Part shown: in pieces, positions 35,962 through 36,577 of the stretch
How the letters are laid out: every line of letters starts with the position of its first letter
Numbering within the stretch: position 1 is the stretch's first letter
Sequence record: MN148435
Source of the DNA: Shigella phage SGF2
Length of the DNA stretch: 64,000 nt
Strand: one strand, 5' to 3'
Translations under genes and position numbers: made by a program
The notes under the pieces: model-generated
What the model was told of the DNA's origin: nothing
Databases searched by the model: none
The model's input: the letters and a program-made list of their open reading frames with translations, nothing else

Positions 35962-36171
35962 TCAGTAATAAATTACTTTAGACATAAAAGAACCCGAGTT
36001 AGGGTCTTCGTACCAGCGATGTATATCAGCGCTTTTTACTATTGTGCCCAGAATCTTCAACTGTTTCTTAGCAATACGAGCCTCTTTGCGAGTGTCAAAC
36101 AATTTGATGCTATCTTTTCTCGTGTGTTGATCAAGATCCCAAACAACACGAATCGCCCACATTTTTTTCAT
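35962..36171 (-). CDS. small YY-ending paralogue 1
   Basis: 69 aa ending KVIYY; tandem family of three. Confidence 0.4.
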   Translation of the reverse strand: MKKMWAIRVVWDLDQHTRKDSIKLFDTRKEARIAKKQLKILGTIVKSADIHRWYEDPNSGSFMSKVIYY

Positions 36172-36380
36172 TAGTAATGTACCTTTCCGCTGATATAAAC
36201 ACGACCAGAAGAATACTCCTTGGCCTTATGGATACTGATACTATTGACCACGTCACCAGTAAGCATAGTCTTTTTAAAATCTCGAGCTTGTTGGCGAGTG
36301 GGGAGTGCAGTCATAGTCATGCCACCTGATGCCCACTTAATCTTTGCTAACCAAAATTGTCTCATAGTGATCGGTCTCAT
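36171..36380 (-). CDS. small YY-ending paralogue 2
   Basis: 69 aa ending GKVHY. Confidence 0.4.
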   Translation of the reverse strand: MRPITMRQFWLAKIKWASGGMTMTALPTRQQARDFKKTMLTGDVVNSISIHKAKEYSSGRVYISGKVHY

Positions 36381-36577
36381 TAATAATAAACCTTACTGTT
36401 GGCAATAAAAGCACCTTCGCTATTCACAATAGCCCTTCCTAATGTAACCTTGTTAAGTCTAAAAGTAGACTTGTATTGATTTTTGACCCTACGTGCGTGT
36501 TCTCGAGTCTTAACAAAATCTACAGCTACTAATTCTCCAGTCGTGTTATCATGTACACGAACAATCCACTTTTTCAT
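36380..36577 (-). CDS. small YY-ending paralogue 3
   Basis: 65 aa ending SKVYY; shared MKKW..RV start and basic mid-region. Confidence 0.4.
   Translation of the reverse strand: MKKWIVRVHDNTTGELVAVDFVKTREHARRVKNQYKSTFRLNKVTLGRAIVNSEGAFIANSKVYY

Follow-up and report, generated by a model that had tools for sequence, protein, structure and literature searches.

Small basic proteins of a phage-specific family are encoded by a predicted translationally coupled array in a phiEco32-like Shigella phage

Kuraviruses, the phiEco32-like podophages of Escherichia coli, are present in phage therapy collections (e.g. ES17 and the BASEL phages), and functions have yet to be assigned to the majority of their early and middle genes. 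A hypervariable island between two highly conserved genes of a phage usually marks genes of phage-host conflict. The closest described counterparts of the genes considered here are phi32_71, phi32_70 and phi32_69 of phiEco32, which sit between the dCTP deaminase gene (gp72) and gp68, and whose products gp71, gp70 and gp69 (ABY52872, ABY52871 and ABY52870) are each entered as ‘hypothetical protein’. The protein family phrog_4939, which matches these genes end to end, is annotated as being of unknown function, and its record mentions neither the tandem, translationally coupled arrays of two to at least four copies nor the second genomic site described below. In the papers on phiEco32, SU10, YF01 and 7-11 that were covered, gp69-71 receive no comment. 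Temporal classes given for the region are at odds, being early in SU10 (PMC4281155) and part of the middle cluster in YF01 (PMC9965538) and 7-11 (PMC8948821). A promoter of the gp36 type, with the consensus tAATGTAtA, is located upstream of phiEco32 gene 68 (PMC4331800, PMC8948821).

We examined the corresponding locus in the window, by which we mean the whole 64,000-nucleotide stretch of Shigella phage SGF2 DNA (sequence record MN148435) that was analysed. The phage is a Kuravirus, and the 3.6 kb around the locus are 95-97% identical to E. coli podophages of this group such as DE5, Bas91, MN03 and CHD5UKE1. A prior sequence-only reading had described three consecutive ORFs of 69, 69 and 65 amino acids at 35962-36577, and these are present exactly there, all on the minus strand and transcribed in the order A, B, C. 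Copy A (36577-36380, minus strand, 65 amino acids, pI 10.3), copy B (36380-36171, minus strand, 69 amino acids if translation begins at the ATG at 36380, pI 10.4-10.6) and copy C (36171-35962, minus strand, 69 amino acids, pI 9.9), the final gene of the array, are orthologs of phiEco32 gp71, gp70 and gp69, to which they are 95%, 88% and 90% identical. The order and the one-base overlaps of the phiEco32 genes are likewise those of the window array. All three genes are already in the databases as hypothetical proteins, with membership of phrog_4939 and orthology to gp69-71 as the full extent of what is catalogued. The proteins have masses of approximately 7.5-8.3 kDa and are strongly basic, with 12-15 lysines and arginines against 3-8 acidic residues, net charges of +7 to +9 and pI values of 9.9-10.6.

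The start of copy B is ambiguous (36365-36380, minus strand), with the ATG at 36380 giving 69 amino acids and that at 36365 giving 64. The former overlaps the stop codon of copy A and has an AAGGT 9 nucleotides upstream. Many copy-B orthologs are 64 amino acids long, starting at the internal Met6 with MKKFWL or MRQFWL, and in many orthologs the equivalent of the ATG at 36365 is the sole start available.

The array is flanked by two genes that lie outside the family, one for dCTP deaminase (36578..37111, minus strand; Pfam DCD, E=4e-34) and one for a 109-amino-acid gp68-like protein (35560..35889, minus strand; phrog_10984, E=2e-64). Further genes for a primase/helicase, a DNA polymerase exonuclease subunit and a nucleotidyltransferase lie upstream along with that for dCTP deaminase, while gp68 is accompanied downstream by genes for a Dps/ferritin-like protein, thioredoxin and ThyX. 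The array had been described as lying between the Dps-like and dCTP deaminase genes, which is approximately correct, but the gp68-like gene and a promoter-bearing 72-bp spacer intervene on the Dps side.

The proposal that these genes constitute a tandem triplication of one small protein is backed by alignment, by pairwise BLASTP and by a common PHROG profile, with significant similarity among the copies found both by alignment and by HMM search. Pairwise BLASTP yields E=1e-6 for B and C, E=2e-4 for A and B, and E=0.036 for A and C, at 23-34% identity, a similarity that is weak and reaches significance for two of the three pairs. Copies A, B and C match phrog_4939 over its full length with E=7.8e-27, 6.8e-28 and 4.5e-28, respectively; the alignments run over positions 1-67 or 2-67 of a 67-position profile (PHROGs v4), and 45 of 45 aligned relatives match it as well. 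These full-length matches of all three copies settle their common ancestry. Eight columns are invariant in the three-way alignment, namely M1, W, T-R, A-R, K and the terminal Y. The central segment of the T.K.AR..KKQ type noted earlier is found as TREHARRVKNQ, TRQQARDFKKT and TRKEARIAKKQ, and the C-terminal (V/I)(Y/H)Y ending as KVYY, KVHY and KVIYY. A shared MKKW..RV-type start is seen for two copies (MKKWIVRV and MKKMWAIRV), but copy B reads MRPITMRQFWLAKI and carries a different N-terminal extension.

No DNA-level repeat exists among the three copies, as only the codons for T-R-x-x-A-R and the gene ends can be aligned, and therefore the triplication must be ancient. A recent DNA duplication was rejected as the origin of the array for the same reason. 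From these comparisons, A, B and C are best read as true paralogs, i.e. old, diverged copies of one small basic protein. Copy-number change near homing endonucleases is documented for virulent phages as SegB-driven amplification (PMC13096335). In contrast to that process, the copies of this array are ancient, approximately 25% identical and without DNA similarity.

The stop codon of the dCTP deaminase gene directly abuts the ATG of copy A, and the stop and start codons of A and B (36382-36378) and of B and C (36173-36169) overlap by one base in the sequence TAATG. An AAGGT lies 5-9 nucleotides ahead of each start codon. The putative Shine-Dalgarno element of copy A, AAGGTG (36583..36588, minus strand), as read from the sequence, lies in the final codons of the gene for dCTP deaminase. 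Those of copy B (AAGGT, 36390..36394, minus strand) and copy C (AAGGT, 36181..36185, minus strand) coincide with Lys-Val codons of the preceding copy, which are AAG GTT in the C-terminal SKVYY of copy A and AAG GTA in the C-terminal GKVHY of copy B. Copy C, which has no coupled gene downstream, encodes Lys-Val as AAA GTA. One-base overlaps also occur in the arrays of two, three and at least four copies in other phages. The locus clearly illustrates how a ribosome-binding site can be contained within the conserved C-terminal motif of a repeated gene. Judged by its gene layout and divergence, it appears to be an ancient, translationally coupled paralog array of a phage-specific family, and it demonstrates no new mechanism.

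Within the 72-bp spacer that follows copy C, the candidate phage-sigma (gp36)-type promoter core AAATGTATA (35929..35937, minus strand; read from the sequence) is found upstream of gene 68 and matches the gp36 consensus. The phiEco32 and window spacers differ at one aligned base, with an identical promoter core. In seven divergent phages the gene-68 promoter core is invariant, and the ribosome-binding site is also conserved, with divergent metagenomic relatives among those that keep both. Because this promoter, the first of the phage-sigma type in the cluster, follows copy C, the array forms the tail of the preceding unit, and the gene-68 promoter probably marks the 3′ boundary of the array transcription unit. 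This location also implies transient, early-to-middle expression. We propose that the only transcription of the array would come from upstream host-sigma70 promoters by read-through, and that its expression would fade once the phage switches sigma factors. A terminator-like hairpin with a 5-bp stem inside copy C (36006-35991) was rejected as a candidate terminator, since such sites are as many as expected from shuffled sequence.

Approximately 10 nucleotides upstream of the promoter core, six of the seven divergent phages keep the block TGGTAGTAGATAT (35948-35960, minus strand). All seven share the first eight bases of this block, TGGTAGTA, with phage L026 reading TGGTAGTACATAT, and the coding sequence just upstream of the block is highly variable. 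This block could be a promoter upstream element or the binding site of a regulator.

Given the small size of the ORFs, one might ask if they are chance reading frames or parts of a non-coding RNA element. The array proteins are also absent from the 34 proteins detected in the SU10 proteome, which is uninformative for proteins this small and basic. However, ratios of nonsynonymous to synonymous change (dN/dS) across nine genomes are 0.31, 0.24 and 0.28 for A, B and C, well below 1 and with synonymous change saturated, and amino-acid motifs are kept where the DNA is not. Moreover, every gene has a Shine-Dalgarno-like site, the array matches no RNA family in Rfam, and the predicted structures described below are confident. 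The selection analysis refutes the non-coding explanation, to which we assign a negligible probability. In the same nine genomes, the flanking genes for dCTP deaminase and gp68 give dN/dS values of 0.038 and 0.045. By this measure, the array genes are real and under purifying selection, and they evolve six to eight times faster than their neighbours.

The family to which these genes belong is narrowly distributed. An exhaustive HMM search of 1.84 billion proteins recovered 21 cluster representatives at E<1e-3, all single-domain proteins of 65-79 amino acids, and every contig inspected for family members is a phiEco32-like phage with unchanged gene order. Members span the Gordonclarkvirinae, with a single further, partial match in Aeromonas phage LAh_8. 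A locus search with copy B alone returned three IMG/VR loci. Neither the plasmids of PLSDB nor a set of 5,426 complete E. coli genomes yielded a family match, and no member turned up in the syntenic regions of phages 7-11 and GAP52, where the same enzymes are retained. This narrow set of hits indicates that the family belongs to one lineage of virulent phiEco32-like podophages. No model of Pfam-A, NCBIfam or PADLOC reaches its curated cut-off for any copy; the best sub-threshold match, Ribosomal_L13e (E=0.045, 14 bits versus a cut-off of 24.9 bits), is at the level of chance. Likewise, word-indexed searches, a profile search of 1.84e9 representatives, profiles against PDB sequences and the Pfam, NCBIfam and PADLOC collections revealed no remote homologs outside the family.

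Comparison of related phages reveals that the array varies both in sequence and in copy number between flanks that do not. Identities to the window proteins A, B and C are 51%, 52% and 99% in phage 4E8, 66%, 97% and 77% in WFI101126, 92%, 48% and 55% in EP335, and 88%, 97% and 55% in IMEP8, whereas the flanking genes are 92-100% identical in the compared phages, except for the dCTP deaminase gene of Bas89 at 56%. This pattern shows that variants of A, B and C are replaced independently of one another. In Suseptimavirus, as in three metagenomic loci, the dCTP deaminase site holds two copies; it holds three in Kuravirus and Nieuwekanaalvirus, and at least four in one metagenomic phage. Between the genes for thioredoxin and ThyX is a second site with zero, one or two further copies. 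A neighbour-joining tree resolves clades for A, B, C and the second-site copies, and the two Suseptimavirus copies group with B and C, indicating that the duplication that separated B from C predates the split of the genera. Across related lineages, the array is dispensable.

Other genes also occupy these sites. HNH endonuclease genes (L016 3079-3588, L010 5367-5876, L013 6086-6577 and L020 6084-6575) sit at both locations of the family, after the dCTP deaminase gene (Bas89 and L010) and before the ThyX gene (SU7 and Bas86). Their presence at exactly these two positions makes both look like hot spots for recombination or insertion, and the setting is reminiscent of amplification driven by homing endonucleases (PMC13096335). 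Some relatives carry an extra small ORF between the dCTP deaminase gene and copy A (L017 3392-3598, L006 586-792 and L012 3598-3789), which in 172-1, 4E8, WFI101126 and IMEP8 encodes an acidic, helical protein of 68 amino acids, and in ECBP2 a predicted membrane protein of 63 amino acids. These ORFs were considered as family members and rejected, as their products are unrelated.

The surroundings of the array raise the prospect that its products are housekeeping subunits of the nucleotide-metabolism or replication machinery (dCTP deaminase, ThyX, thioredoxin or the replisome), and that they might form an A-B-C heteromer whose components are made in equal amounts through translational coupling. 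All copies, at both sites, are within the nucleotide-metabolism and replication cluster, and one-base stop/start overlaps link the genes. However, copy number differs between close relatives, some of which have only two copies, and phages 7-11 and GAP52 retain the same enzymes in syntenic regions where the family was not found. Furthermore, dN/dS is six to eight times that of the enzymes, and co-adapted subunits would not be expected to reassort independently, as the variants of A, B and C do. We therefore consider a housekeeping role improbable. Independent reassortment argues specifically against an obligate, co-adapted A-B-C complex, and it carries no information on the identity of the ligand. 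The faster evolution, the reassortment of variants and the varying copy number together make an accessory role in host interaction the most likely one, rather than a core function. In these respects the array is like variable anti-defence islands, whose genes are small, phage-only, fast-evolving and reassorting, vary in copy number and have conserved flanks. The likeness is incomplete, in that the array proteins are basic rather than acidic.

In AlphaFold2 models based on an alignment of the family, copy A (pLDDT 90.2; strands 2-9, 16-22, 43-51 and 57-59, helix 25-39) and copy C (pLDDT 85; strands 2-11, 21-25, 45-56 and 60-63, helix 28-40) share one topology. Each copy is thus predicted to be a single beta-beta-alpha-beta-beta domain. 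Family members modelled independently in BFVD superpose at TM scores of 0.66-0.89, and a Foldseek search of the PDB with the array models gave no significant match to a solved structure.

Among 45 sequences, W5, R28 and R32 are invariant, and M1, T27, A31, K35 and Y69 are nearly so. The conserved tryptophan is in strand 1, the T-R-x-x-A-R-x-x-K-(K/R) motif occupies the only helix, and an I-H-(K/R) motif is in strand 3, where copy A has glycine in place of the histidine. Almost every member of the family ends exactly at V-x-Y-COOH. A helical wheel places A31, A34 and L38 on what would be the buried face of the helix, and R28, R32, K35 and K39 within about 60 degrees of each other, where they would form a continuous basic ridge beside the buried face. 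This predicted Arg/Lys ridge is the only surface feature common to all copies. The ridge, the conserved tryptophan, histidine and tyrosine, and a pI of about 10 suggest a phosphate-rich ligand. Basic charge and a conserved Arg/Lys ridge are generic and weak indicators of nucleic-acid binding, and some ridge residues could instead be structural, for example by pairing with the invariant C-terminal carboxylate.

The reading that we prefer, with a probability of roughly 40%, is that the copies are small nucleic-acid-binding accessory proteins involved in host takeover or defence evasion. According to this proposal, the basic ridge formed by Arg28, Arg32, Lys35 and Lys39 on one side of the helix would be the binding surface for a phosphate-rich ligand, with DNA or RNA as the most likely candidates, while variable loops and the C-terminal hairpin would give each copy its own specificity. 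The proteins would act as accessory host-interaction factors, either in host takeover or in evasion of defences, and not as core components of replication.

Several known protein classes were compared with the array proteins. At the level of motifs, they resemble RNA binders with an arginine-rich helix of the lambda N type and DNA-binding domains of the AP2 or integrase N-terminal type, which combine a beta-sheet with a helix; the shared elements are a W-x-(V/I)-(K/R) strand, another strand after it, and then a helix with T-R-x-E-A-R-x-x-K-K. Testing gave no support to the lambda-N-type helix, and an AP2/ERF or integrase arm-type domain (a three-stranded sheet followed by a helix) gained no profile or fold support. 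HicB antitoxin (beta-beta-beta-alpha-beta), considered on account of the T-x-E-A helix and the C-terminal H-Y, and RelE/YoeB toxin (two N-terminal helices plus a sheet) were likewise discarded for want of a profile or fold match. Indeed, no significant similarity to known nucleic-acid-binding domains was detected in sequence or structure. The acidic DNA-mimic inhibitors Ocr, ArdA, Ugi and p56 are excluded by the charge of the array proteins (net +7 to +9, pI 9.9-10.6), with p56 appearing in the Foldseek search only at E=1.3. A GIY-YIG (SegE-like) endonuclease was also rejected; its sole match was a 44-residue tblastn alignment at E=0.3, judged to be due to chance, to an ‘HNH endonuclease’ gene of a T4-like phage whose product weakly matches SegE_GIY-YIG.

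A related possibility is that the copies serve as sponges or binders of a nucleotide-derived small molecule, such as a defence second messenger, with each copy tuned to a different signal. The conserved residues (Arg, Arg, Lys, Thr, His, Trp and Tyr) are of the type that bind phosphates and stack on bases, and there are several diverged copies in a nucleotide-metabolism neighbourhood. However, copy A lacks the histidine, and no chains of solved sponge proteins, such as Tad1, Tad2 and Acb2, are among the best PDB matches of the single-chain models. A sponge function seems very improbable. A broader version, in which the array represents a new class of counter-defence or host-takeover protein with no solved fold relative, and whose basic helix holds either a nucleic acid or a nucleotide signal, is doubtful but deserves more weight. 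Under such a scheme host immunity would drive the turnover of variants, either because host sensors recognise the proteins or because different variants neutralise different systems.

It is also conceivable, if rather unlikely in our estimation, that no nucleic acid is involved and that the copies are protein-binding inhibitors of different host proteins or protein variants, with the ridge docking onto an acidic surface of the target. This explanation draws on much of the evidence already given, in that the genes are small, restricted to phages, fast-evolving, reassorting and variable in copy number, that their spot also hosts unrelated small accessory ORFs and HNH endonuclease genes, and that the first phage-sigma promoter of the cluster lies downstream of them. 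As a short and well-defined target, the array could reveal a determinant of host range or defence evasion. Should its function prove ordinary, three ‘hypothetical proteins’ will simply be better annotated. The features that merit recording are the tandem organisation, the embedded ribosome-binding site, the hypervariability between conserved genes and the lack of a fold relative.

Several neighbouring genes yielded observations of their own. Among 129 matching phage records, identity of the gp68-like protein (35560-35889, minus strand) reaches at least 99% in 54, with 24 at 100% among those listed, and this conservation is unusually strong for an uncharacterised protein. Homologs with 31-37% identity are present in prolate podophages of Aeromonas, Proteus, Salmonella and Cronobacter, and the gp68-like gene always adjoins the Dps-like gene. 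The product of the latter (35004-35615, minus strand; Pfam Ferritin, E=3e-7; phrog_3636) is labelled ‘integrase’ in many GenBank Kuravirus records, including those of DE5, 172-1, IMEP8 and ES17, which looks like a propagated mis-annotation.

The nucleotidyltransferase encoded upstream of dCTP deaminase (37121-38548, minus strand) has a weak match to the PolyA_pol head domain (E=9e-4), and its counterpart in the metagenomic locus L010 (3539-4759) faintly matches PF26128 (Gad2, an anti-Gabija family). Among relatives, the nucleotidyltransferase ranges in length from 398 to 490 amino acids. This protein may be a counter-defence enzyme rather than a tRNA CCA-adding enzyme. Finally, the window carries a single tRNA-Arg(TCT) gene (54224-54299, minus strand), and one such gene has been reported for Kuravirus-like phages (PMC9965538).
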